DNA from: Isurus oxyrinchus
Taxonomy: Eukaryota
Length of the DNA stretch: 64,000 bases
NCBI GenBank assembly: GCA_026770705.1
Contig: JANJGN010000005.1
Span: 121,706,001 to 121,770,000, forward strand
Direction: 5' to 3'
Part shown: positions 5,951 to 63,840 of the stretch, in pieces
How the letters are laid out: each line of letters begins with the position of its first letter
Position numbering within the stretch: position 1 is the first letter of the stretch
The notes under the pieces: generated by a model
What the model saw: the letters and a program-made list of their open reading frames with translations, nothing else
Database searches by the model: none
Told to the model about the DNA's origin: nothing
Translations under genes and position numbers: made by a program

Positions 5951-6633
5951 TCAGACTGGCTTTAAGCAGCGCTGCCTAGCTTTAAGTGGTGTAGCCTCAC
6001 ATAAATTTTGGCCTCTTCTGAGGCGCACAGCCACTCAACCTTCAACAATCATTAAGTTTAGCAGGCTAATGAAGCTGTCATGTTGCCTGTATCAGAAGCA
6101 AGAAAAGCAGGTTAATTATGCATCGCCATCTCCACACCCATTTCTGGGGCTATTGAATTTAGTCCCCATAGAGTTTTGTCGAGTTGCCCCATCAGTAAGT
6201 TTAGCTGTCCTTCTCTGTCTTGGTAAATGTGACTTAATGTACTTGGCCAAGGTGGGGAGTTGCAGGTTAGGGGGCAGCACATTAAACCACAAGATGTAGA
6301 ATGTGGGACCTGCAAGAAGTAACAGCCCCATTATTTTGATTTTTCTGATTTCTAGCAACAGTAAGAACAAAAGGAAGGAGTGATCTAAAGGTGCTCATCT
6401 CTGAAGTACTGAAACAACACCCACGATATTTCGTATTTTCTCTTTTTATTTTGTTTGGCCTTGCCCTGCAACAACATTAGCAGATATCCAAATCTCACTC
6501 GGCCCACTTTTTCCCCAATCATCTGCAGCCGAATTTCTCTTTTTTACTCACTCTTTTTCAGTTTCCTTGTTATACTTTCGTTCTGGTTTCCTCCATAGAA
6601 GTTGGATGTTCTTATATTTGATCAGCCCTTCAT

Positions 6634-8532
6634 AGTCGTCTCAATTTCTCTGCTCCTCTCACCCATTCTAACCTGTCTCTCTCTGAACTTACTGCACTCC
6701 ATTCTCTCAGGTCCAACCCTGACATTGTCATCAAACCCGCTGACAAGGGTGGTGCTGTTGTTTGGCGCACTGACCTCTACCTCGCGGAGGCTGAGCGTCA
6801 ACTCGCAGAGACTTCCTCCTACCTCTCCCTGGACCATGACCCCACCACTGAACATCAAGCTATTGTTTCCAGGACTGTCACTGACCTCATCTCCTCTGGG
6901 GATCTCCCTCCCACAGCTTCCAACCTGATAGTCGCCCAACCTCGGACAGCCCGCTTCTATCTCCTACCTAAAATCCACAAACAGAACTGCCCCGGTAGAC
7001 CGATCGTCTCAGCTTGCTCCTGCCCCACAGAACTCATTTCTCGTTATCTTGACTCCCTTCTCTCTCCCCTTGTCCAGTCCCTTCCCACCTATATCCGTGA
7101 TTCCTCTGACACCTTACGTCACATCAACAATTTCCAGTTCCCTGGCTCCAACCGCTTCCTCTTCACCATGGACGTCCAATCCCTCTACACCTCCATCCCC
7201 CACCGGGATGGTCTCAGGGCCCTTAGCTTCTTCCTCGAACAGAGGCCCGAACAATCCCCATCCACCACTACTCTCCTCCGTCTGGCTGAACTTGTTCTCA
7301 CGTTGAACAATTTCTCCTTCAACTCCTCTCACTTTCTCCAAATAAAAGGTGTGGCTATGGGTACCCGCATGGGCCCCAGCTATGCCTGTCTCTTTATGGG
7401 ATATGTGGAACATTCCTTGTTGCAGTCCTACCCCGGCCCCCTTCCACAACTTTTTCTCCGGTACATCGATGATTACTTCGGTGCCGCTTCATGCTCTCGT
7501 CGGGACTTGGAAAAATTTATTAATTTTGCTTCCAATCTCCACCCCTCCATCATTTTCACGTGGTCCATCTCTGACACTTCCCTTCCCTTCCTTGACCTCT
7601 CTGTCTCAATCTCTGGTGATAGACTGTCCACTAATATCCATTACAAACCCACCGACTCCCACAGCTACCTCGACTACAGCTCCTCACACCCCGCTTCCTG
7701 TAAGGACTCCATCCCATTCTCCCAGTTCCTTCGCCTTCGTCGCATCTGTTCCGATGATGCTATCTTCAAAAACGGTTCCTCTGACATGTCCTCCTTCTTC
7801 CTTAACCGAGGTTTTCCACCCACGGTCGTTGACAGGGCCCTCAACCGTGTCCGGCCCATCTCCCGCGCATCCTCCCTCACGCCTTCTCCTCCCTCCCAGA
7901 AACATGATAGGGTCCCCCTTGTCCTCACTTATCACCCCACCAGCCTCCGCATTCAAAGGATCATCCTCCGCCATTTCCGCCAACTCCAGCATGATGCCAC
8001 CACCAAACACATCTTCCCTTCACCCCCCTTATCGGCATTCCGTAGGGATCGCTCCCTCCGGGACACCCTGGTCCACTCCTCCATCACCCCCTACTCCTCA
8101 ACCCCCTCCTATGGCACCACCCCATGCCCACGCAAAAGATGTAACACCTGCCCCTTCACTTCCTCTCTCCTCACCGTCCAAGGGCCCAAACACTCCTTTC
8201 AAGTGAAGCAGTATTTCACTTGCATTTCCCCCAACTTAGTCTACTGCATTCGTTGCTCCCAATGTGGTCTCCTCTACATTGGAGAGACCAAACGTAAACT
8301 GGGCGACCGCTTTGCAGAACACCTGCGGTCTGTCCGCAAGAATGACCCAAACCTCCCTGTCGCTTGCCATTTTAACACTCCACCCTGCTCTCTTGCCCAC
8401 ATGTCTGTCCTTGGCTTACTGCATTGTTCCAGTGAAGCCCAACGCAAACTGGAGGAACAACACCTCATCTTCCGACTAGGCACCTTACAGCCTTCCGGTC
8501 TGAATATTGAATTCAATAACTTTAGGTCGTGA
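6634..8532 (+). CDS. Penelope-like reverse transcriptase + GIY-YIG endonuclease (5'-truncated, no stops or frameshifts, about 632 aa; native start missing)
   Basis: Frame is open well upstream of the ORF-track Met 7168: IVIKPADKGGAVVW, FYLLPKIHK, GRPIVS, MDVQSLYT, QIKGVAMGT, RYIDD, Cys linker CPRKRCNTCP, LVYCIRCSQCGLLYIGET, RFAEH, GLN. Confidence 0.92.
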   Translation, partial: SRLNFSAPLTHSNLSLSELTALHSLRSNPDIVIKPADKGGAVVWRTDLYLAEAERQLAETSSYLSLDHDPTTEHQAIVSRTVTDLISSGDLPPTASNLIVAQPRTARFYLLPKIHKQNCPGRPIVSACSCPTELISRYLDSLLSPLVQSLPTYIRDSSDTLRHINNFQFPGSNRFLFTMDVQSLYTSIPHRDGLRALSFFLEQRPEQSPSTTTLLRLAELVLTLNNFSFNSSHFLQIKGVAMGTRMGPSYACLFMGYVEHSLLQSYPGPLPQLFLRYIDDYFGAASCSRRDLEKFINFASNLHPSIIFTWSISDTSLPFLDLSVSISGDRLSTNIHYKPTDSHSYLDYSSSHPASCKDSIPFSQFLRLRRICSDDAIFKNGSSDMSSFFLNRGFPPTVVDRALNRVRPISRASSLTPSPPSQKHDRVPLVLTYHPTSLRIQRIILRHFRQLQHDATTKHIFPSPPLSAFRRDRSLRDTLVHSSITPYSSTPSYGTTPCPRKRCNTCPFTSSLLTVQGPKHSFQVKQYFTCISPNLVYCIRCSQCGLLYIGETKRKLGDRFAEHLRSVRKNDPNLPVACHFNTPPCSLAHMSVLGLLHCSSEAQRKLEEQHLIFRLGTLQPSGLNIEFNNFRS

Positions 8533-8812
8533 GCTCCCTCCCCCATCCCCACCCCCTTTCTGTTTCCCCCTTTTTTCCCCCCCTTTTTTTTCCCTATAAA
8601 TTTTACAGATTTTTCTTTTCCCACTTATTTTTAAATATTTTTAAATCTTTTATGCTCCCCCCACCCCCACTAGAGCTGTACCTTGAGTGCCCTACCATCC
8701 ATTCTTAATTAGCACATTCGTTTAGATAATATCACCAATTTTAACTTTAACACCTATGTGTTCTTTTGTCCCATTGTCACTGACATCTTTTGATGATCTG
8801 CTTCTATCACTG

Positions 8813-9690
8813 AGATAAAAACAAAGAGAACTGCGGATGCTGGAAATCCAAAACAAAAACAGAATTACCTGGAAAAACTCAGCAGGTCTGGCAGCATCGG
8901 CGGAGAAGAAAAGAGTTGACGTTTCGAGTCTTCATGACCCTTCGACAGAACTTGATTTCGAGTCCAGGAAAGAGTTGAAATATAAGCTGGTTTAAGGTGT
9001 GTGCGGGGGGGGGGGGGGGCGGAGAGAGAGAGAGAGACAGAGGTGCTTGTGTAGACAAACAAGCAGTGATAGAAGCAGATCATCAAAAGATGTCAGTGAC
9101 AATGGGACAAAAGAACACATAGGTGTTAAAGTTAAAGTTGGTGATATTATCTAAACGAATGTGCTAATTAAGAATGGATGGTAGGGCACTCAAGGTACAG
9201 CTCTAGTGGGGGTGGGGGGAGCATAAAAGATTTTAAAATATTTAAAAATAAGTGGGAAAAGAAAAATCTGTAAAATTTATAGGGAAAAAAAAGGGGAAAA
9301 AAAGGGGGAAACAGAAAGGGGGTGGGGATGGGGGAGGGAGCTCACGACCTAAAGTTATTGAATTCAATATTCAGACCGGAAGGCTGTAAGGTGCCTAGTC
9401 GGAAGATGAGGTGTTGTTCCTCCAGTTTGCGTTGGGCTTCACTGGAACAATGCAGTAAGCCAAGGACAGACATGTGGGCAAGAGAGCAGGGTGGAGTGTT
9501 AAAATGGCAAGCGACAGGGAGGTTTGGGTCATTCTTGCGGACAGACCGCAGGTGTTCTGCAAAGCGGTCGCCCAGTTTACGTTTGGTCTCTCCAATGTAG
9601 AGGAGACCACATGAAGACTCGAAACGTCAATTCTTTTCTTCTCCGCCGATGCTGCCAGACCTGCTGAGTTTTTCCAGGTAATTCTGTTTT
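8813..9690 (-). mobile_element. Second Penelope-like copy nested in the 3' UTR of the first: minus arm 8813-9612 plus a short inverted arm 9610-9690
   Basis: Bounded by exact 14-bp direct repeat TGCTTCTATCACTG (8799-8812 / 9691-9704); 9064-9612 is the near-exact reverse complement of 8262-8812. Confidence 0.88.
8914..8952 (-). ncRNA. Minimal type I hammerhead ribozyme motif (CUGUCGA core variant)
   Basis: Reverse complement reads AGTT-CTGTCGA-A-GGGTC-ATGAA-GACTC-GAAA-CGTC-AACT. Confidence 0.75.
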
Positions 9691-9813
9691 TGCTTCTATC
9701 ACTGCTTGTTTGTCTACACAAGCACCTCTGTCTCTCTCTCTCTCTCCGCCCCCCCCCCCCCCCACACACCTTAAACCAGCTTATATTTCAACTCTTTCCT
9801 GGACTCGAAATCA

Positions 9814-9852
9814 AGTTCTGTCGAAGGGTCATGAAGACTCGAAACGTCAACT
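9814..9852 (+). ncRNA. Minimal type I hammerhead ribozyme motif (CUGUCGA core variant)
   Basis: Stem I AGTT/AACT, core CTGTCGA, stem II GGGTC/GACTC, GAAA, palindromic ACGT stem III, GTC cleavage triplet. Confidence 0.75.
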
Positions 9853-10164
9853 CTTTTCTTCTCCGCCGATGCTGCCAGACCTGCTGAGTTTTTGCAGGTA
9901 ATTCTGTTTTTGTTCCTTCATTACTCACTTCTGCTCATTTAACACCTTTGAATCATCTGCCTTGTAACTGTGAATAAAATAAATGTCTTCCTTGCTGAAT
10001 TCATGGTTTACTTGCTCTGCCTGTTGCTTAATGGACCTTGATTATTCCCTAGAACATTTTAACGTTTTGTCCAACAAAATAATAACCTTCAACATAAACC
10101 TCTTCCCCTTTCCCCTGCTGAAATAACTATTATTGGTGACTTAATTGTCCACCATCGCACCAGC

Positions 10165-10610: not shown

Positions 10611-11605
10611 CATGGTGTTGCAAGATCCACTAAAGGAAAAACAGTAAAGAGAAAGAACATTTGGAGAGACCAAAGGCATCTCAGAGGCAGTCACCATATC
10701 TTGCGGGAAGTACAATGATCTATTTGCTTTCTCTACCTTTCATTCATATAACTGGGATGATTGTAATCTGTTCTACACTTGTTAGGGATAATGTTCCTAA
10801 TTTTCAATTTTCTCAAAACAAAAAACCCTAACCTAAAGCCACACATCCTTCTATTTTCTTTCTATTACATTGATCATCCTTCATATAAAAAATTTGAACA
10901 TTAGTGGCACCTCTGACAGGAACATAAGGTGCTTTTTCAACTCTAATTTTTGGAAGTGTATAAACTACTAATCTCTAAGATGTCCACATCAAAAGGTTAA
11001 ATGGAGCCTACTTGTGGAGACCTTTAGCCATGCGTAATCTTGGAAATCGTTGCAGGGAGTGGAATTTATGCTTCAGTATTTCGATATCTTGTCGACCACC
11101 TGAACTGTCAATCAAATTTTTGCTGAGTCTATAAACCTGCTATCCTCTAGTTCTTTTGCCAATTATCATAAGTCTCTGACCTCCAGTTACTGAGCCTTCT
11201 GCCACCAGAAACAGTTTCTCTTTATTGACCGAATCAATAGCCTCTATGATTTTGAACTTCTCTGTTAAATATTCCCTTAACTTTCTCTGCTCTAGGAAGA
11301 ACAACCCCAGCTTTTTTCCACTGCCATTTAACTAACATTCCATATCCTTGATACCATTATAAATGTGGCTATTGCAATTTATAATGTGAAAAAGTTGACA
11401 GGACATACAGAGATATGCAAGTCTTTTTAATAGATTACAGATATATAACCATTGCAGTGATGAAGGCACTGTATTACTAAGTCAATGCAGACTTGAAATT
11501 CCCAGGTTCAAGTCCTGGACTGCTATCACCTATGGCACCAGACCTCAACAAGAATCAGCACCTCATTGAGGGAATGAGAAAAATGGGGAATCAAAACTAT
11601 ATAAG

Positions 11606-12110
11606 ATAAAAACAAAATACTGCAGATGCTGGAAATCTGAAGCAAAAACAGAAAATGCTAGAAAAACTCAGCAGATCTAGCAGCATCTGTGGAGAGTGAA
11701 ACAGAGTTAACGTTTCGAGTCCTTGTGACCCTTCAGCTCTTAAGATAGTTATACTGTTTAAGAGGGGTCGAGCAGGTGAAGCTGAATAGATGGCCAGCGA
11801 TACATGGAGAGAAAGGAGAGATTGACAAATATGTCATGAACAAAAGGATAGATGGAGTGTTAATGGTAGTGATAAGGGCTAAAAAAGGTGCTGATTGTGG
11901 CGTAAAGGTAAGAAAGCAGAATGTGATAATAGCAGAACAAGGGTAGCATTGTGTGAAAGAACAATATGGAACAAGTAACAGATGGCCCTATTGGGGATGG
12001 GGTGGTGGGGAAGAAAAGGATAGAAAATGGGATAGAAGGGGGAATAAAAAAGGGATAAAACCATGGATAAATAAATAAAAGTAAGTGGATAAAAAATAAA
12101 AATGAAATAA
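11606..12110 (-). mobile_element. Older Penelope-like 3' UTR/pLTR fragment with damaged hammerhead
   Basis: CAGATGCTGGAAATCTGAAGCAAAAACAGAAAATGCTAGAAAAACTCAGCAG...GTTAACGTTTCGAGTCC is homologous to the other PLE tails; the core CUGANGA is partly deleted. Confidence 0.75.
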
Positions 12111-13039
12111 GACCCCTCTGCACTTACCTGACCCTCTCTGGGTTCTGGCACTTAGAGTAGCAGGACTGCTTATTGTCCCAGAAGTGGCCACCACTCCCGG
12201 TAGTGTTGCTGACGGCCTATCAGGTGGCTGGCAGCCTTGTGAGGCAGGACTTTATCCCGAATGAGGGCCAGGAGTCTCACCTCTGATCAATTAGTGCTCA
12301 TGGCTGTGGAACAGCTGGCATCAGCAGGAATATGTGCTTTGCTGACTCTTGGGGTGGCGGGATGTGAAACACCACCATCCATAAAATCCAGTGCCAGGAG
12401 ATGACAAGATTTAGGAGGTGGCCATGAATATGCTTGGCAGCATCTTTATGAAGACAAAAGTTTGAAGAGAGCAGGAGGGCATGTAAGTTTGAAGGAGACA
12501 GAGTAAGGGCAGTTGAGGTGAAGACTGAAATGACCAAAGTTAAGTTATTATTTGGGCCAGAGGCTGAGGGAAGGAAAAAGAGAGCATCCTCAGGGAGGAA
12601 CATTAGGTGCAATTTGGATAAATTATGAGCATTTTAAAGGAGCAGAGGGTAATTGAGGACTACGAGGAAGAGAACACTGTGTGATAGTAATGCAGGTACA
12701 GGATCCCTTATCCAGAATCCCAAGATCTGGAAGGACCCGAAAACAGGCAAATTGAAATTAGCATGCAAATCCTTTTATTCTTTATTTGATTCTCCTCATT
12801 CTGTGATATTTGTTATCTTTGTTTCAGCAAAGACTCTTCTGTACCTCTTCTTCGAGTTGTCCACTTCTTCTTAAGCATAACTGACAGATGGCCTTGTTAA
12901 GGAAGTCTGGGCAGTGTTATTTTTCTTACATATATATAAAAACAAAAAAACTGCAGATGCTGGAAATCCAAAACAAAAACAAAAACAGAATTACCTGGAA
13001 AAACTCAGCAGGTCTGGCAGCATCGGCGGGGAAGAAAAG

Positions 13040-13078
13040 AGTTGACGTTTCGAGTCCTCATGACCCTTCGACAGAACT
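13040..13078 (-). ncRNA. Hammerhead ribozyme motif (CUGUCGA variant)
   Basis: Same motif as 9814-9852, loop II ATGAG. Confidence 0.72.
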
Positions 13079-14520
13079 TGAGTTCGAGTCCAAGAAAGAG
13101 TTGAAATATAAGCTGGTTTAAGGTGTGTGTGTGGGGGGCGGGGAGAGAGAGAGAGAGAGAGAGAGGTGGAGTGGGGGGGTGTGGTTGTAGGGACAAACAA
13201 GCAGTGATAGAAGCAGATCATCAAAAGATGTCAACAACAATGGTACAGAAGAACACATAGGTGTTAAAGTTGGTGATATTATCTAAACGAATGTGCTAAT
13301 TAAGAATGGATGGTAGGGCACTCAAGGTATAGCTCTAGTGGGGGTGTTTTTTTAAAAAAAATAATGGAAATAGGTGGGAAAAGGAAAATCTTTAAAATTT
13401 ATTGGGAAAAAAAAGGAAAGGGGGAACAGAAAGGGGGTGGGGATGGAGGAGGGAGCTCACGACCTAAAGTTGTTGAATTCAATATTCAGTCCGGAAGGCT
13501 GTAAAGTGCCTAGTCGGAATATGAGGTGTTGTTCCTCCAGTTTGCGTTTGGCTTCACTGGAACAATGCAGCAAGCCAAGGGCAGACATGTGGGCAAGAGA
13601 GCAGGGTGGAGTGTTAAAATGGCAAGTGACAGGGAGGTTTGGGTCATTCTTGCAGACAGCCCGCAGGTGTTCTGCAAAGCGGTTGCCCAGTTTACGTTTG
13701 GTCTCTCCAATGTAGAGGAGACCACATTGGGAGCAACGAATGCAGTAGACTAACTTGGGGGAAATGCAAGTGAAATGCTGCTGCAAAACGTTAAAATGTT
13801 CTAGGGAATAATCAAGTGAAGCAGCATTTCACTTGCATTTCCCCCAACTTAGTCTACTGCATTCATTGCTCCCAATGTGGTCTCCTCTACATTGGAGAGA
13901 CCAAATGTAAACTGGGCGACCGCTTTGCAGAACACCTGCGGTCTGTCCGCAAGAATGACCCAAACCTCACTGTCGCTTGCCATTTTAACACTCCACCCTG
14001 CTCTCTTGCCCACATGTCTGTCCTTGGCTTGTTGCATTGTTCCAGTGAAGCCCAACGCAAACTGGAGGAACAACACCTCATCTTCCGACTAGGCACTTTA
14101 CAGCCTTCCGGACTGAATATTGAATTCAACAACTTTAGGTCGTGAGCTCCCTCCCCCATCCCCACCCCTTTCTGTTCCCCCTTTCCTTTTTTTTCCAATA
14201 AATTATAAAGATTTTCCTTTTCCCACCTATTTCCATTATTTTTAAAAAAAACACCCCCACTAGAGCTATACCTTGAGTGCCCTACCATCCATTCTTAATT
14301 AGCACATTCGTTTAGATAATATCACCAACTTTAACTTTAACACCTATGTGTTCTTCTGTACCATTGTTGTTGACATCTTTTGATGATCTGCTTCTATCAC
14401 TGCTTGTTTGTCCCTACAACCACACCCCCCCTCCACCTCTCTCTCTCTCTCTCTCTCCGCCCCCCCCCACACACACCTTAAACCAGCTTATATTTCAACT
14501 CTTTCTTGGACTCGAACTCA

Positions 14521-14559
14521 AGTTCTGTCGAAGGGTCATGAGGACTTGAAACGTCAACT
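14521..14559 (+). ncRNA. Hammerhead ribozyme motif (CUGUCGA variant, stem II C>T)
   Basis: AGTTCTGTCGAAGGGTCATGAGGACTTGAAACGTCAACT. Confidence 0.68.
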
Positions 14560-15723
14560 CTTTTCTTCTCCGCCGATGCTGCCAGACCTGCTGAGTTTTT
14601 CCAGGTAATTCTGTTTTTATTTCTCTTACAGTTGGCAACGCCGGTTATATCGGAGATGTCAGGAAAGTACTGGGAGAATGCATCTGGATAGCTCTCTGAC
14701 TTCATCCCATCGCTGGTCACATTTCCCAGGGACAGCTGGGGAGTAGGAGGAGGAACCTTCAGGCCAGTGGCAGGTATCCAATTCAGGCTGTTAAGGGGGT
14801 CATTAACTGTGATTTTGTGCAGAGCTTTGAATGTTGTAGGAGACGCACAGGTCTTGTGGAGCTTCAGCTCATCAACTATAATGAGGTGAGAGCACAATAG
14901 CGGGAGGCTGTTGTTTGTTACTTTATTTTTTCATAGTTTATTTTATTTCATGTATTATAAGCATTTTATGTATTGTAAGTAGAGGACTCAAAATCTGTAA
15001 AATCCCCAAATCCGGCACACATCCAGTCCGGAGCTTCCTAGATATGGGGTCCAGTGCCTGTGTGAATTTTGATGCTCGTGTGATGGTACAAGGGGAAGCT
15101 TCCAGGAAGGAGAAAGGTGTTTCCGCTAGTGAGTGACATTTCAATAAATATCAGTACATCAACTTAGTCATACACAATTATGTCATAAATGGTGAGTGAG
15201 TAGATATTCTGGGGGGAAATGCCGAGAGTGATAGATTTGTTGATCTGTTGACAGAAGCCAGGGAGATGGTAGTTAATGAGTTGAGTAGAATGGGAAGGAG
15301 ATTATTTTAGTCAAGCGCATATCTTAACTTCATCAAAATTGCAACATGGCTACTGGCTTAGCCACTTAATCACTGTATTTGACATGTGGGGTTGCTTGAG
15401 TTAACAGAGATTTATGCCAGGGTAAGCCTGGCAGACAATGCTGAGTTACAGAGAGGGTAGCCATGGCTTTTGCAAGGGTTTAAAAACCTGATGGTAGAAT
15501 AGAAGCTACTTTATAGAGTAATGATGGTTGAAATAGAGATTGGTGAAGGGACTACCTGAGGAGGGGAGATGAAATGTTGATGTGACTGGGTGAGAAGAGA
15601 TCTGGGTCCAAAATGAGCTGTAAAAAGGGAGATAGAAGTACTGGTCTTGGATCTGGAGTGGCTGCTAAAATGCATAGGCATGAAGGGTTCTATCTGCATG
15701 GCAGAGATTACACAAAACATGTA

Positions 15724-18700
15724 AGACAGGATTTTAACTCAGGACCCTTTTCCCTGACCGGAATCTTCTTGTAGCATTGAGTGTCCCGATCGTGGGACTG
15801 TACAGGACTTCTGCTCTTTGGCGGAACGGCTGGCCACACACAACGGTGCAGCAGGCAGCCAATTAGATATTAATGGACGAGGTGCCTAGCCACTTGTGCG
15901 ATGGGCCCGGGTAGGAAGTTAACAATTTCACCGTTACCTCATGGGATTGAAGGTCTTGGTGCCATATTTAAAGGACACATGGACTGGCATTTATGAGGGC
16001 AATAACTTGGGGAGGGTGTCCCAGAAATTAGATTCCTGACCCCCGTAGAACAGGAGTCTGCAGAAATGGCAGGGGAGTCAGAAATCTGGAGTGCAAAGGG
16101 ACTAATTCAGAAATCTGGAGTGCAAAGGGACTTGGGAGTCCTAGTCCAGGATTCTCTTAAGGTTAACTTGCAGGTTGGGTCGGTTGTTAGGAAGGCAAAT
16201 GCAATGTTGGCATTTATTTCGAGAGGACTAGAATATAAAAGCAGGAATGTGCTGCTGAGGCTTTATAAGGCTCTGGTTAGACCACATTTAGAATATTGTG
16301 AGCAATTTTGGGCCCCGTATCTCAGGAAGTATGTGCTCGCTCTGGAGAGGGTCCAGAGGAGGTTCACGAGAACGATCCCAGGAATGAAAGGCTTAACATG
16401 GGAGGAACATTTGAGGACTCTGGGTCTATACTCGATGGAGTTTAGAAGGATGAGGGGGGATTTGATTGAAACTTACAGAATACTGAAAGGCCTGGATAGA
16501 ATGGACGTGGGGAAGATGTTTCCATTAGTAGGAGAGACTAGGACCTGAGGGCACAGCCTCAGAGTAAAGGGAAGACCTTTTAGAACAGAGATGTGGAGAA
16601 ACTTCTTTAGCCAGAGAGTGGTGAATCTATGGAATTCATTGCCACAGAAGGCTGTGGAGGCCAGGTCATTGAGTGTATTTAAGAGCGAGATAGATAGGTT
16701 CTTGATTGGTAAGGGGATGAAAGGTTACGAGGAGAAGGCGGGAGAATGGGTTTGAGAAACTTATCAGCCATGATTGAATGGCGGAGCAGACTCAATAGGC
16801 TGAATGGCCTAATTTCTGCTCCTATGTCTCATGGTCTTATGGGAGGATGGTTGTTGATCATGTGCGGTCAGAGAGGCATCAGAGTGAAGATGTCTCCAGC
16901 CTGATATTCAGAACTGGGCATACAGGATACAGACATGATATCTTGATGGGGAAAGAGAACTTGCATAACCGTCAGCTAATTCTTTGTGTTCTCCACTACA
17001 GGTACTCACAGTCACAACAGACGGCGAAAGCAGCCTGTAGCAAGCCCGACCTCCACCTCTGCAGATGATGAAATGAACCAGTCAGGGGATGCACTGTCAT
17101 GTCATTCCCCTGCATCCTCCACCAGGGCAGAGACATTCACCTCAGTGGTTACACTTTTGAGATTATACTCAGTGTCACAGTCTGATGATCACATCATAGA
17201 CACACCCTTGCAGTTGATGAAGAATCTGACAGCTGAAGTCCCTGACAATCAGAGGATTGTTGGAGACCAGGGCCATTCTGATCCCCATGCAGGAACCTGT
17301 TGGAGATGCAGAGATAGGCAGGGGAACATCTGGCAGGTTTGCCAGAGGCCATATACAGCCTTGAGCTAAAGTTGGAGGAGTCCACCCAAGTCTTGAGTGC
17401 TGATATGGCTCTGCCATGTGAGCATATGACATCCTCCTTGAAGAGGTTGGCAACCACCATGGGGAACCAGGTCCAGGAGAACACTCAGTAGCTGCTGGTT
17501 ATGCACTGGAACCTGTATTCAGTCACACTGGCCATGGGCTGCATACAGCATTGGCTAGGCGAGAGGTACGAGCACTTTGATCTCTCTCCAGGTGCATCTG
17601 TTCCTCCTGGAGTCAGGGAGGTGCCATCGGGTACCAAGGAGCACCAGCAAGTCACCCTGAGAACACCATCTTAGGGCGCCATAAGGGTGTGCTATCACCG
17701 CTCCTCCTCTCTGCTAGTGTTCTCATCGCCTCCAGCAGGTGAGGTTGAAGAGGATGCAATTGCACTTGTGCAGAAAATTCTCAGCAGGCTGGAGCCCTCT
17801 AGGCCTCAGACTGTAAGAGAAGTGCAGCCAAAGTCAACTCAGGCAACAGTGTGTAGCGTTCATTAGGCTGCCTCCAGTTCAGCTGCAGATGTCGGGGTTG
17901 CACCAAGACATAGTGTTAGGAAACGTAAGATGACAAAATTGTAAAGGCACAAAGGTGGCAGGGGTGCCTATTCATTCTATGGATATTATAAGTCATGTGT
18001 TAACATGTGGTTTAGATCAATTTATTCATGTGCATTTAATGGTCATTTTGTTGGGAGTTGCTCGTCCTGATGGGTGTATCTAAGGGTATGACACTTCAAT
18101 GATTCTCATTGATGTTTGATGTGGGCTTCTGCAAGGTTGTGTAGGTGTAGCAGGCCACAGTGAACCTGGATACTCTCTGTGGCATGCACTGCAGCGCTCC
18201 AGCTGAGCAGCCCAGGTAGTGGAACTTCATCTTCAGCGTTCCAGTGGTCTGTTCTATTGTTGCCCTTGTTGAGGCATGGGCAGCATTATAGCTTTCTTCT
18301 GCTGGGCTTTAGGGGTTCTGCACAGGTATCTTGAGCCAGGCCTTCCGAGGATATCCCCAGGAGCCACCCCTGCAGTTGCTGAGGGTGAGCAAACAGTTGT
18401 GGCACCTGAGACTGAGTGAGAAATTAAGAGTCATGAGAGCTCCTTGGGAATGGAGCACAGATCTGCAAGATTTGTTTGCGGTGATCACAGACCAGCTGCA
18501 CATTGAGAGAGTGAAAACCTTTTCAGTTTATGAAGGCCGCTGGCTGATCCAGGGAGTTAGTAGCCCAACAGGTGTGCAGTCAATTGCCCCTTTTACCTGT
18601 GGAAATTCAGCCATGGCACCAAACCCCACAGCTCTTGCTGCTTGGCTCTTCGGGTCTGTGGTGAATCTCACAAATTCATTGGCTCTTCTGAACAGGACAT

Positions 18701-26126: not shown

Positions 26127-26362
26127 NNNNNNNNNNNNNNNNNNNNNNNNNNNNNNNNNNNNNNNNNNNNNNNNNNNNNNNNNNNNNNNNNNNNNNNNNN
26201 NNNNNNNNNNNNNNNNNNNNNNNNNNNNNNNNNNNNNNNNNNNNNNNNNNNNNNNNNNNNNNNNNNNNNNNNNNNNNNNNNNNNNNNNNNNNNNNNNNNN
26301 NNNNNNNNNNNNNNNNNNNNNNNNNNNNNNNNNNNNNNNNNNNNNNNNNNNNNNNNNNNNNN
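26127..26362. other. Assembly gap (236 N)
   Basis: Run of n. Confidence 1.
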
Positions 26363-29282
26363 TACGACATTGTCCATCAATAAAGACCATCCGGTTTTTT
26401 GCATGAGAATATGTAATTTTCAAGAAAGTAATGCCCTTCTGACTTCTGATAAAACAGATTCTACATATGGTTTGTATTATACACAAGCTTAAAAGCTGGC
26501 CTCATCATACTTTGATTTCAGTCTTGTAGCATAATTAGGTCAGTAGCCAGTTTAATAATTTTATTTATATTTGATGTGCTGTGCCTTTATCCTGTATCTA
26601 AGAACATTCCTGTAATATATTTTAACATATTAGTGTCTGGATCTTCAATTTACTTATATGTTTGCATGTATGCATAAAGGCAAAATAAGGGTGGAGATGA
26701 CGGGGTGAGATGGCATGTCTGAATTTTCCAAAAGGTTTTAACTTGTTACAAACATAAATGTACCTCAAAATGGATATACATAGTGTATAATTATAAATGT
26801 TTTGCAATGGAAAAATAATGACTAGCAAAATTAATGGATATTCGAAAACTGCGGCCTTCAGTTTTCTGCAGGGACAGTGCATAATATTACCTTCATTCTC
26901 TACATGTACAAATCTGTGGCATTCATGATAGCAGCATTTGATACCAGATCACTGTCTGTGCAGCTGTGCCTTAATATGGCTATCAACTACTCAACCTCTG
27001 TGGCTGTGAAATGCATTAGATAGGATATTTCATGGCTTTTTCAATATATTTAGAAAATTCTTTTTGTTATTTCCATTTTTATACCCTTATTCAGTTTGAT
27101 ATGAATTACAGCTTTGTAAATTTTTTGTATAGGAATTGCCATGTTAAAATATGGCTACTTCACTGATGTAAGAGAATGTGCTCAAGGAATGGGGAGGGTA
27201 GGAATTGTGAGTACGTACTTAAGATTGGGGATGGGGGCAGGGGGAACTGTGGTACAGTTCCTGGAAAATATAACCAATAGCTGGTGAAATATTTCCATTT
27301 CCCACTCTTTATCACTTGGTATTAATAGATTTTAATGAAGTCCAATTTATTGCACCAAACCGAAGCCGATTCTTTAACTATAACTATTAACAAGTCTTCT
27401 ATTGTAAATTATTTTTCAGTAAACTAAGAGGACTTATGCTCAACGGAGCTTTTGATTCACTTCTTCTGAAGTTATAGCAGCGGAGCAAAGAAGCACTGAG
27501 GAAATTTGCTCTCTGTCTCAGTGAATTAAGAGGGAAGGACACTGGAATGAAGTATTCTTAAGGAAAAAAATTACTTCTTAATTGCTTTTGCTTTCTAAAC
27601 CTCTGCCCCTCTCTACTGTCCAATCTGGTTTCCATTGCCGCAGCAATGAAAAATCACAAATGATGTTTCCTGTGATCATGACCTAGGGTGCATTTTCCCT
27701 CCTTGACCTCTCTATAACCTTTGACATGGCTGACAACACTCAGTTTCCCCAATCCATCCCCCCTCTCAATCTCTCCACTGACTGTGCACTAGCGGACTAC
27801 TTTTCAGGCTTTTGTTTACCTTCATTTAGGCATCGGGAAAACCATTTTTTTTTGATCCCTACCACAAATTCTATATCCTTTCCATTTCCTCCTCCAACCA
27901 CAATCTTGGGTTGAACCAGACTGGTCACAATCCTTAAATTCTATTCAACCCCGAGTTGTGAGGCCAGGGTGTGGGGGATAGTCTGGTCTGGTTCAGGGTT
28001 AGTTGGGGAAGGTGGTCGGGGCGGGGGATTAGCCAGGATGAATGCAGGGGGGATAGTTAGGTGGTCGGGGTTAGTCAGGTTGGGCGGATGGTCAAAGGGA
28101 TAGTCAGGACGGGTTGGGGGTTGTCAGGTCGGGCTGGGGCTGTGGTCAGGGAGTTGGAGGTAGTTGGATGACTGGGGCTTGGGATGGTCGGGTGGTTGGT
28201 GGGGGTGATCTGGGGTGTCATTTGTGATGTTCAGTTGACTTACACAGCTGTTAGGCCAGGTGTTAAACTGTGTAACATTTCCTGGGTAAGTATCTGCACA
28301 AGTCTTGCCCTAAGCTCAGATCAGAGACATTCGCAGAAGGTCCCAAGTGGCAGGGAAATAGCCCATCGGGTGTTTAAACTTTCCAGGCAATTTCTGTGTA
28401 TGTCTGTGCTTCAAGACTTCTGCGGAGTCCTCACGAGCATTTCCTAACATACGTCCCATTTCTGGCAATCCGGAGACCGGAAAATTTGGCCCATCATCTC
28501 ATTCTTTTCCTCATTGTCCATTTTTATCTGCATATGGCTCTGCGAAGCTTAGGATACTTTTCTATTTTACTGAACCAGACTAACATTTTGTGTCTTTTGA
28601 CTTGCTTGCCAGTTTTTTTTAAAACAGTTGCAAAGTCCAGCAAATATTTTCTCAGTGCCTATGGATAAGCTGGTAATTGAACATTATATAAAATCCTCAG
28701 CTGCAAAACTGGTAAAAGACTAAAAATTAACTACATATGTTAAGGAATATATATAAAATGCAAGCTATGTTTTTATGGTATTTACAGAATAATGCACACT
28801 TTTGAAATTTGATCCCGTGAACAGCAATAATCCATTTAATACAATTTGAGTTACTCAGTCACTAAATCAGTGGCCCTAATGTTATATTTTGCATGGCACA
28901 ATTATTCTATTCTTATAAAAAAGAGTATTCTCCAACTCACTATGAGTCATGGGAGATCAATTTCAGTATGTTGTGCGCCTGTATCTTCTATATGTATATG
29001 AATGTTTCCTGTTCATCCATGTGTCAGCCATGTTGGTAGTACCTTTGCCTCTGAATCAGAAGGTTGTGTAGGACTTGAGCGCAAAAATCAAGGTTGACAA
29101 TCTAGTGCAGTATTAAGGGAGTGCTGCACTGTTGGAGGTGCTGTTTTTATTTGATGAAAGTTTAAACTAACATTCCTCTCAAAGTGGACATCAAAGATCC
29201 CATGGCACTATTTTAAAGAAGCTCAAGGCATTATCTCTCGTGTCACGGCCAATATTTATCCCTCAATCACCATGACAAAAGC

Positions 29283-29955
29283 TATTTTAACACTCCACCC
29301 TGCTCTCTTGCCCACATGTCTGTCCTTGGCTTGCTGCATTGTTCCAGTGAAGCCAAACGCAAACTGGAGGAACAACACCTCATCTTCCGACTAGGCACTT
29401 TACAGCCTTCCGGACTGAATATTGAATTCAACAACTTTAGGTCGTGAGCTCCCTCCCCCATCCCCACCCCTTTCTGTTTCCCCTTTCCTTTTTTTTCCAA
29501 TAAATTATAAAGATTTTCCTTTTCCCACCTATTGCCATTATAAAAAAAAACACCCCCACTAGAGCTATACCTTGAGTGCCCTACCATCCATTCTTAATTA
29601 GCACATTCGTTTAGATAATATCACCAACTTTAACTTTAACACCTATGTGTTCTATTGTACTATTGTCGTTGACATCTTTTGATGATCTGCTTCTATCACT
29701 GCTTGTTTGTCCATACAACCACACCCCCCCACCACCTCTCTCTCTCTTTATCTCTCCGCCCCCCACACACACACACCTTAAACCAGCTTATATTTCAACT
29801 CTTTCTTGGACTCGAACTCAAGTTCTGTCGAAGGGTCATGAGGACTCGAAACGTCAACTCTTTTCTTCTCCGCCGATGCTGCCAGACCTGCTGAGTTTTT
29901 CCAGGTAATTCTGTTTTTGTTTTGGATTTCCAGCATCTGCAGTTTTTTTGTTTTT
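29283..29955 (+). mobile_element. 5'-truncated Penelope-like copy (end of GIY-YIG + full 3' UTR/tail)
   Basis: Near-identical to 13982-14616; exact 11-bp TSD ATGACAAAAGC (29272-29282 / 29956-29966). Confidence 0.93.
29821..29859 (+). ncRNA. Hammerhead ribozyme motif (CUGUCGA variant)
   Basis: AGTTCTGTCGAAGGGTCATGAGGACTCGAAACGTCAACT. Confidence 0.75.
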
Positions 29956-40269: not shown

Positions 40270-41490
40270 GGGAGACTGGTGACCTAGCTGTATGCCTGAT
40301 GACCTACAGAGAGCAAAGAAGACGGAGAAGAGAGAGGGACTGAGGTGCCTGACCGTGCACAGGCACAAGCAGCAATCTCAGGAAGAAGGGACTGCTGGGG
40401 CTCTCACATACATTGCCCGGAGCGACAGCGACCAGGTGGCTGGTCGGTGTCTAGCGACACCCAGGGTCTATAGACGTTGCCTGTCATTTCTGCAGATGAC
40501 CGAGAACCAGTGTCGCTGATGACTGCCTCTGTCTAAGGATCTGGTTGCTCACATCTGCTATCTGCTGCTTGACTTGGTGCCAAGGGCACATGGAGGGCAA
40601 CAGGTGCTAGTGGCTGTGAAAGTGACCGTGGACACAATTTTTATGTCACTGACTCCTTTCAGGGCTCCACAGAAGACCTCTGGGATATCACAAGCCGCCA
40701 CCCACAAATGCATCTAAGAAGTCACGAATGCCATCTTCTCAAAGGCACACAACTTTGTGCATTTCTCCCAGGACCTGGACAGCCAGGATGCAAAGGCCAT
40801 TGGGTTCGCTGGATCTTGAGATTCCCACAGGTGCAGGGTGCAATCGACTGCATCCATGTGGCATTCAGGTCTCCATCGCTGCACATGGCGGACAACATCA
40901 ACTGCAAGGGATTCCACTCATTGTGCAGCTGGTATGTGACCACCAGAAACACATCCTGCAAGTATGCGCACAGTTTCTAGAGATTGTGAACGCTGCCTAC
41001 ATCCTCAGTCAGTCACAGATCCCTGGAGTCTTCCACGTTCCACAGAAGCTGCAGGGATGGCTCCTTGGGGACAAGGGCTACCTGCAGAGGCTGTGGCTGA
41101 TGACATCCATGTGGTGGTTTCAGACTGCAGCAGAGCGACGGTATAATGTGGCTCATGCTGCAGCTTGCAACTTGGCGGAGCAGACCATCGGGATGCTGAT
41201 GATAAGGCTCCAGTGCCTGAACGAGTCGGGTGGAGCCCTGCAATACAGTCTGCAGAGGGTGTCGTGCATTGTCATTGTCTGCTGTGCCCTTTACAGCCTG
41301 GCACTCCAATGGGGAAACGAACTGGCTGAGGAGGAGATGGAGGATCTGCATGTCTCCTCCGATGAGGAAGACACTGACGGGGATGAGGGTGAGGAGGTCT
41401 TCGGAGGTGACAATGACGGGGATAAGGCCCTTGCACTGGTTACATGAGGCAGGCATGCTCAGGAGGCCCTCATACCTGCTAGATTTATGA
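40270..41490 (+). pseudogene. Harbinger DDE transposase pseudogene
   Basis: RVYRRCLSFLQMTENQC, FPQVQGAIDCIHV, CKGFHS, GWLLGDKGY, ERRYNVAH, EQTIGML, acidic tail; several frameshifts and stops. Confidence 0.92.
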
Positions 41491-42249: not shown

Positions 42250-44040
42250 AACCCCGACACTACATCTTGGTACTCTGTGGACATCTACAGCAGAGGCTGA
42301 GGCAGTCTGCTGACTGCGATGACTGTGATGACTTTGGCGGCAATACTCTGGAGGGCCAAGACTTGGAGGGCCCTGGCCTGCTTTCAGGGTACTGCTGTGT
42401 AGCTGTGGCACCTTCCTCAGCTTGTGAAGCTGGAGCTACTGAGGGTACAGGAAGAGGGGATTCAGATGGGCCGGTCACTCCCAGAGCCACCTGGGTGAAT
42501 GGGCCCACCTGTTGATCATCCTCCCTGTGGGTGCTCATAGGCCCCTGGCTGACTCTTTGAGGGGAAGGGGTAGCTGAAGTGAGCCCTAGCTGCCCCGCAC
42601 CCCTCTCATGTACACTATGTAGGCCAACTTTGACATCAGCAGTGGAGCTGAGCACATGCAGCAATGCAGGAGGTCTCCATGGTGGCTGCCATCCTACCAG
42701 TGCTGACCTCGGTGCTTTGGCATGCTGGCACTATCAGCTCAGCCTGAAGGTGGATGGACTCCTCCATTGTGCCTTGCAATCTGAAGAGTGCAGCAGACAT
42801 CCCTTCCTGATGTTCCTGAGCTTGCTTTTGCATCTCCAGCAACTGTGACATGACCAAGCCCAGAGGTTCGTCATGTGAGTTGGACTCAGAAAATTTCTGG
42901 CCTCCAGCAGTCCTCCAAATTCCGGGGACTTGGGAAGTCCTTGCCACCGCCTGCTGCGGATCAGACAGTGTGATGTGCTTACTAGATTGTGATCCTGTGT
43001 CTATTCTAAAGCTAGGTCCCACCAAGACGTGTGTCACTGCGCTGGTGGAGGGTGTGGGTGAGCGCTGTGACGGAACTTCGAGGAGGGTGCCTTCAGATTC
43101 CCCTCCGGAGGTTTCTTCGGGGCTTGATTGGAGGCCCCGGGTCATGGACTCTGTCAGCTGTTTGGCAGATGTGCCTGCGAAAGCACGGAGAGATAATTAG
43201 TGCATGGCAGTGGCCTGTAAAAGAGGACATATCACTCACGGCCTGGTTGTCTGATGGATGTTGCATTGCTGGATCCTCACTTGGTAGAGCAGTGCCAACC
43301 TCACCGTCAGCACAGGACCGGTCCAGATCCTCGCCAGTCAGCTGGATGACTCTGTTTTCAAAGTCTGTGAGGACCTTGATTGTGGGCATTCTGCCACCAG
43401 TCTGCAACCTCTCTCTCTTGTTATGTGCCAGCTTGTCCCTCATGGATAGAGATGGAGAAAGTGTAAGTAGGATGCCTGCCAGACCAGATGATAAATGTCC
43501 CTGAAACAAAAACAAAAAGTGCTAGAAAAACTCAGAATAAGAGTCACACGGACTCGAAACGTTAACTCTGTCTTTCTCTCTACAGATGCTGTCAGATCTG
43601 CTGAGTTTTTCCAGCACTTTTTTTGTTTTTGTTTCAGATTTCCAGCATCCGTGGTATTTTACCTCTATTTTAGATAAATGTGCCTGGCCTGTGTGGGTGG
43701 TGAGTGGTCCAATAGATGGCTGAGGACAAAGGTATGTGTGAGAGTGTGAATTGTGATGTCCCTTGATCTGACAGAGTGAGGGCCTTGTGGATGTGTGCTG
43801 TGTTTGTGAGTGTGTGAGTTGAGAGTGATGAAAAAGTGGCACAGGATGGCTGTCCTCTCCTAAAGGGCGTTGGCACTGACCCCCACTGCTACCGTCTCCC
43901 AAGCCTTGGTCACATTGCCCAACCTACAGCCAGAGCGGGAGTACAGGATATCCCAGCGGGCCTCCACAGCATCCACAGTCACTCGTGGGACCCGTCATTA
44001 AACCGGGGTGCTGTGGTCTTTTTTCCTTTGCTGGCCATGT
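42250..44040 (-). pseudogene. Harbinger Myb/SANT-like (MSANTD/NAIF1-type) gene remnant, about 3 exons
   Basis: MASKGKKTTAPRFND (exon 1), DKLAHNKRERLQTGGRMPTIKVLTDFENRVIQL (exon 2), S/T-rich plus coiled-coil exon 3. Confidence 0.8.
43504..43672 (+). mobile_element. 169-bp mini Penelope-like insertion (damaged hammerhead + tail) with an inverted 5' end
   Basis: 43504-43534 is a reverse-complement copy of the internal tail; flanked by GATAAATGTCCCTG (43490-43503) / GATAAATGTGCCTG (43673-43686). Confidence 0.85.
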
Positions 44041-44384
44041 CTCCTGGGCCATGGCGGTGAGCTGGTAGCGATGAGCAGTATGCTGGTGGCTGCCTTTTAA
44101 ACATGGTGGCCAGTATGATGCAATGGCGGAGTGATGGCGGGAAGGCAAAAGAGAGCCCGCCTGTCATGGAAACGGCGTGTTTCCCGGGAGTGCATAAATA
44201 ATGAGGCGGGTTTGGGATGATATGCCGCGAAAACCCGCCATCATCGGCGGCGGGTAGGATGCCTTTTTGCCCACCCACTACTGCACTTAGTGCAAATTTG
44301 GGAAAATTTCGCCCTTAGTGATGGTAATGTCCTTGAATGTGGAGGTGGTCATTGCCTCATGTGGAGTGAATGTTACTTATGTTA

Positions 44385-44855
44385 TTAAGAATGGATGATA
44401 GGGCACTAGTGGGGGTGGGCGGAGCATAAAAGATTTAAAAATATTTAAAATATTTTAAAATACCCCCATTAGAGCTATACCTTGAGTGCCCTACCATCCA
44501 TTCTTAATTAGCACATTCGTTTAGATAATATCACCAACTTCGACACCTATGTGTTCTTTTGTTCTGCTGTCTGTGACATCTTTTGATGATCTGCTTCTAT
44601 CACTGCTTTTGCCTACAACCACACCACCCCCCCTCCACTTCTCTCCCCCCACCCAACCCCACCCCCCACCACCTTAAACCAGCTTATATTTCACCCCTTT
44701 CTGGGATTCGCCTAGTTCTGTCGAAGGGTCATGAGGACTCGAAACGTCAACTCTTTTTTTCTCTGCCGATGCTGCCAGATCTGCTGAGTTTTTCCAGGTA
44801 ATTCTGTTTTTGTTTTGTATTTCCAGCATTCGCAGTTTTTTGTTTTTTGTTTTTA
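44385..44855 (+). mobile_element. Penelope-like 3' UTR copy with short inverted 5' arm (44385-44460); hammerhead at 44714-44752
   Basis: Homologous to 29555-29955; the first ~75 bp are reverse complement of the 3' UTR. Confidence 0.88.
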
Positions 44856-49000: not shown

Positions 49001-52000
49001 ATAAAAACATAGAACAGAAGAAATAGGAGCAGGGGTCGGCCATTCGGCCACTCAAGCCTGCCCTGCCTTCCAATAAGATCATGGCTGATCTGCCTCAGGC
49101 CTCAACTCCTCTTTTGTGCCAGCTCCTCACAGTCCTCAACTCCCCAATACTTCAAAAATCTATGTACATCCTCTTTAAATATTTCCGTGATCTAGCCTTC
49201 ACAACTCGCTGGAGTAGAGAATTCCAGGTATTCACTATTGTTTGAGAGAGCAAATTTCTTCGTATCTCAGTTTTAAATGCGTGCATTCTATAACTATGTC
49301 CCCTAGTTCTAGATTCCTCCACTAATGGAAGCATCATCTCAACATCTACCTTGTCAAGCCCCCTCAGAATCTTGTACATTTCAATAAGATCACCCTCCAT
49401 TCTCCTGAACTCTCATGAATAAAGGCCTAACCTTTTTAGCTGTTCTTGGTAAATCAACCCTTTCATATCAGGAATTGGCCTAGTGAATCTCTGTTGAACT
49501 GCCTCCAATGCCAGTATATCCTTTCTTAAATATGGGGACCAAAACCATAAACAGCACTCCAGGTACGGCCTCACCAACACCCTGTACAGTTGTAACAAGA
49601 CTTCCCTATTTTTAAATTCCAACCCCCTTGCAATACAGGCCTAAATTCCATTTGCCCTCTCAATTACTCGCTGTATCTGCATGTTAACTTCCTGTGTTTC
49701 ATGCACAAGAACACCCAGATCCTTCTGTGCTGAGGTTTTGGGAGTCTCCAGTTAAATAGTAGTCTACTTTTTGATTCCTCCTACCAAAGTGCATGATCTC
49801 ACATTTTCCTACATTAAACCCTATCTGCCAAGTGTTTGCCCACTCACTCAACCTATCTATGTCCCCTTGCAGATTCCTTATATCTTCATCACAACATGCC
49901 TCCCATCTATTTTTGTATCATCAGCAAATTTCAATACATTACACTCTGCCCCCTCCTCCAACTCATTAACATAGATAGTAAATATTTGAGGCCCTAGGAC
50001 TGATCCTTGTGGCACTCCACTAGTTATGTCTTTGCAGCCTGAAAAAGCCCCATTAATCCTGACTTTCTGTTTTCTGTGTGTTGAAAAATCCTGAACCCAT
50101 GCTAATACATTACCCCTAATACTGTGAGCTCCTGTATTGTAGAATAACCTTTTATGTGGTACTTATGGAATGCCTTCTGGAAATCCATCTACCGGTTCCC
50201 CTTTATCAACTCTGCTTGTTATATCCTCGAAGAACTCTAGCAAATTTGTCAAACATGATTTCCCTTTCACAAAACCATGTTGATTCTGTTCGATTGCGAT
50301 AAGCTTTTCTAAATGTCCTGCTATTTCTTCCTTAACAATGGACCCCAGCATTTTCCCAATGACAGATGTTAGGCTGACTAGCTATAGTTTCCTGATTCTT
50401 GCCTCCCTCCCTCTTTGAACAGGGGTGTCATATTAGCAGTTTTCCAATCCGCTGGAACCCTCCTGAAATACAGTGAGTTCTGGAATATTTCGACCAATGC
50501 CTCCACTATCTCTGCAGCCACTCCCTTTAAAACCTTTGGATGCAGGCCATCAGGTCCTGGCGACTTGTCTGCCTTTAGCCCCAATAGTTTGTCAAATACT
50601 TTATCCCTCATGATGGAGATTGTTACACGATCTTTCCTCCCATTAGCTCCTTGCATATCTGTTATCTTTGGGATGTTTATAGTGTCCTCCACTGTGAAGA
50701 CCGATGCAAAATATTGGTTTAAATTATCTGCTGTTTCCCTGTTCCCCATTATCAATTCTCCAGCTGCATCCTCCAAGAGCTCACCCTCACTTTAGCCACT
50801 CTCTCTTTTTATATACCTGTGGAACCTCTTGCTGTGTATTTTTACATTTCTTGCCAATTTCCTTTCATTATCAATTTTCTCCCTCTTTATTAGCTTTTTA
50901 GTTCCTTAAAAAAATCCCAATCCTCTGGCCTACCACTAGTTTTTGCCACTTTGTATGCCTTTGTTTTTGATTGGATATTCTCCTGACCACCTTTGTTAAC
51001 CATGGGTAGTTCATCCTTTTCATCGAGTCCTTCTTTTTGACCGGGATAAATTTTTTGCTGAGTGTTATGAAATATCTGCTTAAATATCTGCCAGTGCTCA
51101 TCCACTGACCTTTCCCTTAGTCCATTTTCCCAGTCTGCTTTAGACAATCCTTTCTTCATACCTCTGCAATGCCCCTTATTTAAGTTGACACTAGTTTGAG
51201 ACCCGAGTTGCTCGTCCTCAAACTGAATTTGAAATTCTACCATGTTGTGATTGTTGTCCTCTAGAGGATCCTTAACTACGATATCCCTGATTAACCCCAC
51301 TTCATTACACATTACCAGATCTAAAATAGCCTGTTCCCGGGTAGGTTCTCCAACATATTACTCTAAAAACAATCCCTGTTGCACTCTACAAATTCGTCTT
51401 CCATGTTACCCCTGCCAATCTGATTTGTCCAGTCGATATGCAGATTAAAATCACCCATGACAATTGTAGCGCCCTTCTTACACACCTCCATTATTTCCCG
51501 ACTTAGACCTTGTCCTACAGTGAGGAAATTCTTTGGGGGCCTATAGATGACTCCCACCCATGACCTCTTCCTCCTGCTATTCCTTATTTCCACCCAAACT
51601 GATTCCACATCACGACTTATTGTACCTATATCAGTACTAACCACCACACTGATACCTTCCTTTATTAACAAAGCTACCCCACCTCCTTTTCCTTTTTCCC
51701 TATTTTTTCGGAATGTCGAACACCCTTGAATATTGACTTCCTAGTCTTAGTCACCCTGCAAACACGTCTCTGTAATAACTAGCAAGTCATTCATTTATTT
51801 CTATTTGTGCCATCAACTCATCTATCTTGTTACAAATGCTACGTGCATTCAGATAAAGAGCCATAAGCTTTGACTTTGTACCATTATTGCTCATTCTGGT
51901 TCTGATTTCTTCTGCTTATATTTTCTGCCTCTCCTTGTCACACTTTGATTATTGTTCGCCTCTTCACTACCCTGCACCTCTTCTCTCTCGTTTCTTTTTG

Positions 52001-53552: not shown

Positions 53553-53899
53553 GGCAAGTAGCACCTGACTAACAACTAAATTTTTTGAGCAGTAAACAAG
53601 GAGAGTTGAGAAGAATAGCCCGTTTGAGGTTGTCTATCTGGATTTCAACAAGATTTTTGACAAGGTCCCACATAGCAGACTGATCAGTAAATGGATAGCT
53701 CATGGGACCCAAGGAAAAGTGGCAGGTTGGATCCAAGATTGGCTTAGTGGCAGGAAGCAAAGGGTCATGATTGATTGGCGGTTTTGTGACTGCAAGGCTG
53801 ATTCAGGGCTCCCTACTGGGCCCCTGGCTGTTCGTGGCACATATCAATGATTCAGACTTAAATATAGGGTACATAATTAATAAGATTATAAGATGATCA

Positions 53900-63691: not shown

Positions 63692-63840
63692 AGCAAACTA
63701 CTGCAAATAGTAGAAATCTGAATTAAATACAGAAAATGCTGCAAATATTAAACTGGTCTGGAAGCATCTGTGGAGAGAGAAACGTGTTTGAGAGAAAAAT
63801 CCTTGATGAGAATTTACAGCATTTTCTGTCTTTATTCAAT
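63692..63840 (-). mobile_element. Old PLE tail fragment with a short inverted arm
   Basis: GAAATCTGAATTAAATACAGAAAATGCTG...AGCATCTGTGGAGAGAGAAAC followed by CAGCATTTTCTGT. Confidence 0.65.

Follow-up and report, generated by a model that had tools for sequence, protein, structure and literature searches.

PLE copies in the window

The window, i.e., the whole stretch of 64,000 nucleotides of shark DNA analysed here, carries a reference PLE (copy A), an inverted insertion downstream of it (insertion B) whose two arms are joined through a short filler, and further PLE copies (Table 1). In copy A a single ORF combines the RT (RVT_1, E=7.6e-8) with a C-terminal GIY-YIG domain (E=6.5e-4, below the Pfam cut-off), which is the layout of an endonuclease-bearing PLE. 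The encoded protein P0001 contains a CX2-5CxxC linker, two cysteines inside the GIY-YIG motif and a DKG motif (residues 502, 541 and 41), and all three features belong to the definitions of Neptune/Nematis-type PLEs in PMC8557442. By these definitions copy A is a predicted endonuclease-bearing PLE of the Neptune/Nematis type, the linker motif being common to both clades. Among the 120 homologues listed, the named entries with the highest identity (64-73%) come from cartilaginous fishes (Chiloscyllium, Rhincodon, Mobula, Hypanus), which by itself points to a shark or ray as the probable host. Although its 636-codon frame is open, copy A lacks the tail at its 3' end, and no convincing target duplication flanks it (6600-6640 and 9905-9945).

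A pattern search detected a hammerhead core-like motif in seven PLE-family copies; Rfam gave no hammerhead match at gathering or E-value thresholds. In the pLTR of the long family the core is a variant one (14525-14551), and the short copy F has a canonical core on the minus strand (60902-60928).

Table 1. Positions of the PLE copies, the arms and junction of insertion B, and the donor of the filler (window coordinates).
Feature	Position	Strand	Description
PLE copy A	6622..9914	+	Open 636-codon frame (6622-8532) with RT and GIY-YIG; tail-less 3' end; interrupted by A2; reference
Comparator A2	8813..9692	.	Inverted, nested in A; tailed minus arm 8813-9612, tail-less plus arm 9610-9692
A2 junction and duplication	8799-8812/9691-9704		3-nt microhomology, no filler; 14-bp duplication at the positions given
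Donor of filler	10037..10069	+	Non-PLE AT-rich DNA, single in the window; 2,848 bp separate it from the target duplication
Left target-site duplication copy	12917..12930	+	14 bp, one mismatch; extra TA repeat of 5 nt next to it (12931-12935)
Insertion B left arm	12936..13785	-	5'-truncated PLE (GIY-YIG end and pLTR) with 3' tail (about 12936-12979); matches strictly up to 13782
Odd base	13783..13783	.	Differs from both element and donor; added without template, misincorporated or mutated later
Filler	13784..13816	-	Inverted copy of the donor; 26 nt foreign, 5 nt overlap with right arm, 2 nt overlap with left arm
Insertion B right arm	13812..14618	+	Same region without tail; its start lies 5 nt 5' of the element position at which the left arm ends
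Right target-site duplication copy	14617..14630	+	14 bp; first 2 nt overlap the element end
Comparator E	43501..43672	.	Short inverted insertion, related family; tail-less minus arm, tailed plus arm
E junction and duplication	43490-43503/43673-43686		Few unmappable junction bases; 14-bp duplication at the positions given
Copy D	44384-44847		Internal inverted piece; target duplication looked for, not found

All three inverted copies with a target duplication (A2, B and E) pair one tailed arm with one tail-less arm. The tail measures 38-44 nt in A2 and B, and E is likewise tailed on one arm. In A2 the tailed arm is 800 nt and the tail-less arm 83 nt long. The tail-less end also terminates copies A and F, both without a partner arm, and because it occurs alone in these copies it is regarded as a real start point.

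The comparators differ in history. A2 lies inside the pLTR of the nearly identical copy A (2/646 differences) and is bounded by a 14-bp duplication, pointing to a recent self-insertion. Copy D begins (44384-44460) with an inverted internal piece that carries a small deletion and is similar to the A subfamily; it looks like internal priming. The 5' truncation points of A2, of copy C and of both arms of B fall within about 170 nt (copy A 8199-8369), near the start of the endonuclease domain.

A locally copied filler joins the arms of insertion B

Insertion B (12936-14618) is flanked by a 14-bp duplication with one mismatch and is therefore regarded as a single event. Both arms start at the 3' end of the element, both match the GIY-YIG domain, and they overlap over about 800 nt. 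The tail is confined to the left arm and five junction bases are confined to the right arm, a distribution with a chance of about 0.002-0.003. Since each arm thus has sequence that is absent from the other, a simple fold-back of one strand is ruled out.

The filler was first noticed in a sequence-only reading of this DNA as the exact reverse complement of 10037-10069, and both the coordinates and the identity proved right. The match covers 33 nt, breaks off at the very next base in both directions and has a self-BLAST E-value of 2e-9. The 33-mer has no second copy and no match of at least 11 nt elsewhere in the 64 kb, with 6e-15 matches expected by chance in the window, and no part of the donor or its flanks is repeated there. 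Exact matches of at least 18 nt in the window, those between PLE copies left aside, number ten; only the filler/donor pair links a PLE junction to unrepeated DNA, and the remaining nine are tandem, low-complexity or between copies of other repeats. A PLE origin of the filler, which would have contradicted the sequence-only reading, was rejected, as the filler is absent from copy A, which spans that position.

The donor had been described as non-PLE DNA about 120 bp past the 3' end of the neighbouring PLE, and its start indeed lies about 120 nt beyond the end of copy A. The distance of 3.7 kb given in the same reading had to be corrected, as it counts the left arm of insertion B. Measured to the start of the target duplication, i.e., to the empty site, the donor is 2,848 bp (about 2.85 kb) away.

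At the right junction the filler shares the five bases TCAAG with the plus arm, as had been noted, and these bases (13812-13816) equal positions 8199-8203 of copy A. With the five common bases included, the right arm starts at copy A position 8199. At the left junction two bases overlap (13784-13785) after the single mismatched base 13783. The strict match of the left arm reaches copy A 8207; counting the first two filler bases as element, with a mismatch at 13783, places its end at 8204. When the five shared bases are assigned to the donor, the right arm is also placed at 8204, so that both arms end at the same base and enclose a 31-nt donor loop.

Viewed as cDNA, the strand departs from the element after the five bases that also open the donor, a further 28 nt are copied, and the final two bases pair with CA. 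The right-arm cDNA contains 52 CA sites, of which this one, immediately preceding the departure point, is the closest. The two-nucleotide overlap requires one mismatch and could be due to chance (about 1 in 16). Candidate 5-nt priming sites up to 3 kb away in either direction number 11, and nothing singles out the one used. The junction as a whole folds as a long hairpin with the filler as its loop. In the window Rfam reported no family at the gathering score; miRNA-precursor matches at the junction lie below gathering and reflect the hairpin only.

A 5-bp inverted repeat at 10032-10073 brackets the donor almost exactly, an arrangement found within 1 nt at 1.1% of window positions. The idea that a donor hairpin set the limits of the copy was dropped, as the fold is weak (-1.3 kcal/mol), is not the best one in wider context and was considered post hoc.

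The expectation that other junction spacers would also be locally templated was not borne out. At five other junction stretches searched in the window, the best local templates were 11-14 nt long and lay in other repeats or low-complexity DNA, and none of them counts. A mappable filler is thus present at one of the four inverted PLE junctions in the window, that of insertion B. The 5' junction of copy C (29272-29295) mirrors the left junction of B: a 2-nt overlap and one mismatch precede the element sequence. Its duplication is 11 bp long.

Divergence and age of the arms

The arms of insertion B were compared after masking three indel-rich tracts, which left 708 columns. They differ at 16 of 694 clean columns (2.3%). 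Each arm differs from copy C by about 2% (11/532 and 9/538) and from copy A by 5%. The inner parts of the arms are not more alike than the rest: 10 of the 16 substitutions lie in the inner ~30%, half of them at CpG.

Of the eight substitutions between the arms in the part that copy C also covers, two have both states present in other copies (simulated p=0.034, which is optimistic), and the same holds for two indels. These variants weakly suggest that the arms may derive from two RNA templates. The support is weak because all four are slippage-prone, being located at run boundaries or in a short tandem duplication, so that recurrent change is likely.

Copy A and A2 differ at 2 of 646 columns, compared with 16 of 694 between the arms of B (Fisher p=0.0014). 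Judged by this divergence copy A is probably younger than insertion B, unless the arms of B had already divergent sources. An exact 33-mer would survive 2.3% divergence with a probability of about 0.46, and the patch may therefore be as old as insertion B.

A model with two primed ends

We propose that insertion B was primed from both target ends and that its completion involved a closure of the polymerase theta type, which left the filler behind as a templated repair patch; in our judgement this has an even chance of being right. The process would begin with a staggered cut by the PLE protein at the target, of which the 14-bp duplication is the visible trace. Both target ends would then be extended, each from a different start site, the tail end in one case and the tail-less end in the other. 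Such extension would yield two cDNA ends of the same sense, which are unable to pair. In A2 these ends would have been closed by direct microhomology and in B through the patch.

For the patch, synthesis of the right-arm cDNA would have ended near element position 8199. The terminal 5 nt would then have primed on the bottom strand of the donor ~2.85 kb away and been extended by 28 nt. The copy and the microhomology are seen in the DNA, and the direction of synthesis is deduced from them. Two nucleotides at the new 3' end would next have paired with element cDNA; the simplest way would be a snap-back onto the same strand, right next to the departure point. Extension from there would produce sense-strand element DNA, which could anneal to the tailed cDNA at the opposite end. 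The proposal of the sequence-only reading, that a strand left the element template, copied a local template via microhomology and returned to the element in opposite orientation, is supported by the junction.

The combination of a tailed and a tail-less arm fits priming from both target ends, with the two start sites published for a PLE RT. In PMC11167929 two RT start sites of the Poseidon element bound the tail, both target strands are extended and a dimer is predicted. The text of that paper does not discuss inverted pLTRs and leaves the later integration steps unvalidated, and Poseidon belongs to another PLE clade than copy A. For polymerase theta, PMC7454005 describes 2-35-bp insertions that begin and finish at microhomologies, some of them templated many kb away, and PMC11292364 describes stem-loop extension from two terminal base pairs. 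By analogy, the polymerase which copied the donor and snapped back is more likely to have been host polymerase theta than the PLE RT.

The filler had also been read as a direct footprint of how inverted pLTRs form. That reading is weakened, as one of the four inverted junctions in the window has a mappable filler and the patch therefore looks like an optional joining step. In the proposed model the inversion itself would arise from two-ended priming, with the patch as one optional way of closing it.

Several points count against the mechanism. It is based on a single case, and no sequence feature points to the enzyme. In addition, snap-back would make the arm parts near the centre identical at birth, yet the inner part is not more alike. 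In a more far-reaching version, which we find unlikely, the PLE RT itself would come off the RNA, invade chromosomal DNA kilobases away, copy the patch and snap back, with a dimer routinely priming both ends. If patches are made by the RT in this way, junction fillers in the shark genome would be a fossil record of PLE integration intermediates and their contacts with local DNA, and also a route by which PLEs capture host DNA.

Alternative origins of the filler

The same junction would result if insertion B had integrated as a (near-)perfect palindrome of ~1.7 kb whose centre broke later, with a few bases lost on each side and a templated patch rejoining and stabilising it. The filler would then record the revision of a palindrome and not its integration. 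The arms of B end within 0-8 nt of the same element position, unlike those of A2 and E; such a common stopping point is also what a perfect palindrome would show after a subsequent break in its centre, and the long hairpin with the filler in its loop agrees with it. The review PMC8701086 describes a perfect palindrome in the mouse with frequent rearrangements at the centre and stabilisation by short spacers. However, deletions make up 93% of the 118 rearrangements in that review and inclusion of a spacer is uncommon. A later break would also leave the origin of the equal arms unexplained, the variants shared with other copies hint at two templates, and A2 and E are inverted copies that arose here with unequal arms. 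We consider a later repair of the palindrome rather unlikely, although it is the strongest competitor of the proposed model.

It had been left open whether the template was chromosomal DNA or a host or readthrough RNA. A jump of the PLE RT from element RNA to a local RNA, either a host transcript or read-through from copy A, and back to the element has precedents, as co-insertion of a nearby pre-mRNA has been reported once for L1 (bioRxiv 2022.05.18.492429) and 'extra template' junctions are known for R2 (PMC11331408). The base at 13783 could likewise be a non-templated addition by the RT, provided that synthesis ran from left to right on plus-strand RNA. For read-through from copy A, however, the evidence is unfavourable: copy A looks younger than B (2/646 compared with 16/694), AATAAA signals at 9973 and 9978 stand between A and the donor, upstream of the latter, and the direction primed by the five bases needs the bottom strand of the donor, opposite to the A transcript. 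Pfam scans of 14 long ORFs and of 299 of the 368 stop-to-stop ORFs of at least 60 aa gave only transposon-type domains and weak matches below cut-off; the other 69 ORFs lie in PLE copies, in the transposase region near 40-41.5 kb, near 52.8-53.6 kb, or among the 14 long ORFs. With no host-gene domain in the 299 scanned ORFs a host gene as source of the RNA was dropped, although a transcript may exist and such a scan would miss short exons. Junctions of group II introns that copy neighbouring DNA in vivo depended on polymerase theta and were different from the template-switch products of the RT (PMC3280974). Because of the age of copy A, the AATAAA signals, the opposite strand and the missing host-gene domain, read-through from copy A is unlikely as the template and DNA is more probable, and we regard an RNA jump of any kind as distinctly improbable. 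That the match misleads us, either because the 33-mer stems from an unrecognised repeat (another copy or the source element) or because the junction is an assembly error, seems very unlikely. The window does contain an assembly gap, and PLE inverted structures are known to trouble assemblies (PMC8557442). But the donor and its flanks are without a repeat in the 64 kb and the match ends sharply on both sides. The structure is not a fold-back of reads, given 16 differences between the arms in 694 columns and the 14-bp duplication around them; a graph misjoin would presumably require long overlaps and not 5 and 2 nt.

Comparison with known systems

Templated closure during a two-ended insertion, the reading we prefer, resembles several systems in part. 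Inverted pLTRs, one-sided tails and captured host spacers in PLEs are reported in PMC3846280, where self-priming is proposed. Like insertion B, the inverted-pLTR insertions in PMC3846280 and PMC8557442 have a head-to-head inverted 5'-truncated copy, a 30-40-nt tail at one end and a target duplication. Palindromes are described at their junctions, self-priming on an antisense template is proposed, and the available text of both papers describes no locally copied chromosomal filler. A literature search, in which subscription papers including older Penelope work were thinly covered, found neither a locally templated filler at a PLE inversion junction nor a report of two-ended priming for inverted pLTRs.

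With polymerase theta end joining (PMC7454005, PMC11292364) insertion B shares a short copy, microhomology at one end and perhaps at both, a template kilobases distant and a putative 2-bp snap-back. The insert is short (33 nt), exact and templated in cis from 2,848 bp away; the microhomology is clear at one end (5 nt) and amounts to 2 nt with one mismatch at the other. Unlike in standard polymerase theta joining, the joined ends in B are the cDNA ends of a retroelement.

For L1, as proposed for B, both target ends prime and the cDNA ends are joined by microcomplementarity (bioRxiv 10.1101/2024.08.27.596794). The same study lists 22 templated insertions from non-L1 local DNA <250 bp, and local inversions at L1 breaks are reported in bioRxiv 2024.12.14.628481. 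Two differences are evident. In twin priming of L1 the second primer anneals internally and the arms are mostly non-overlapping, whereas ~800 nt are duplicated in B. L1 templates typically lie within 15 bp of the site (supplements may list farther ones), compared with 2,848 bp for the donor of B. In the 'snap-back' and 'extra template' 5' junctions of R2 (PMC11331408) and at the junction fillers of linear group II introns (PMC3280974), synthesis continues from the cDNA 3' end before joining, with nearby DNA, the cDNA itself or another RNA as template. Both are similar to B, but their junctions connect cDNA to target, whereas that of B connects arm to arm within an inverted duplication.

The filler is thus a known type of repair scar, well beyond chance, in a setting for which we found no report, and it has been seen once; what is unusual is the distance of the donor and the position inside a PLE inversion. 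The locus offers a countable alternative to self-priming, in which a pair of arms, one tailed and one tail-less, is the sign of two-ended priming, and the mode of closure can be read from the junction. Together with its neighbours, insertion B gives a testable model of how inverted pLTRs form, with one case of a filler. Judging from four in 64 kb, the shark genome should hold very many such inverted PLE junctions, and the two-ended model can therefore be tested by computation alone.

Other repeats in the window

Short elements of 90-140 nt at 11598-11734, 43539-43672, 60828-60932 and 63694-63783 have the PLE 3' end and tail in common and form a distinct subfamily; they are possibly non-autonomous passengers. 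The assembly gap comprises 236 N (26127-26362) in an AT-rich stretch. Fragments of a DDE_Tnp_4 transposase were found at 18099-18308 (minus strand) and 40653-41447. Decayed LINE pieces with matches to RT, endonuclease and a GDSL-esterase-like domain are located at 49881-52554 (minus strand), 53596-53847 and 55457-55834 (minus strand).
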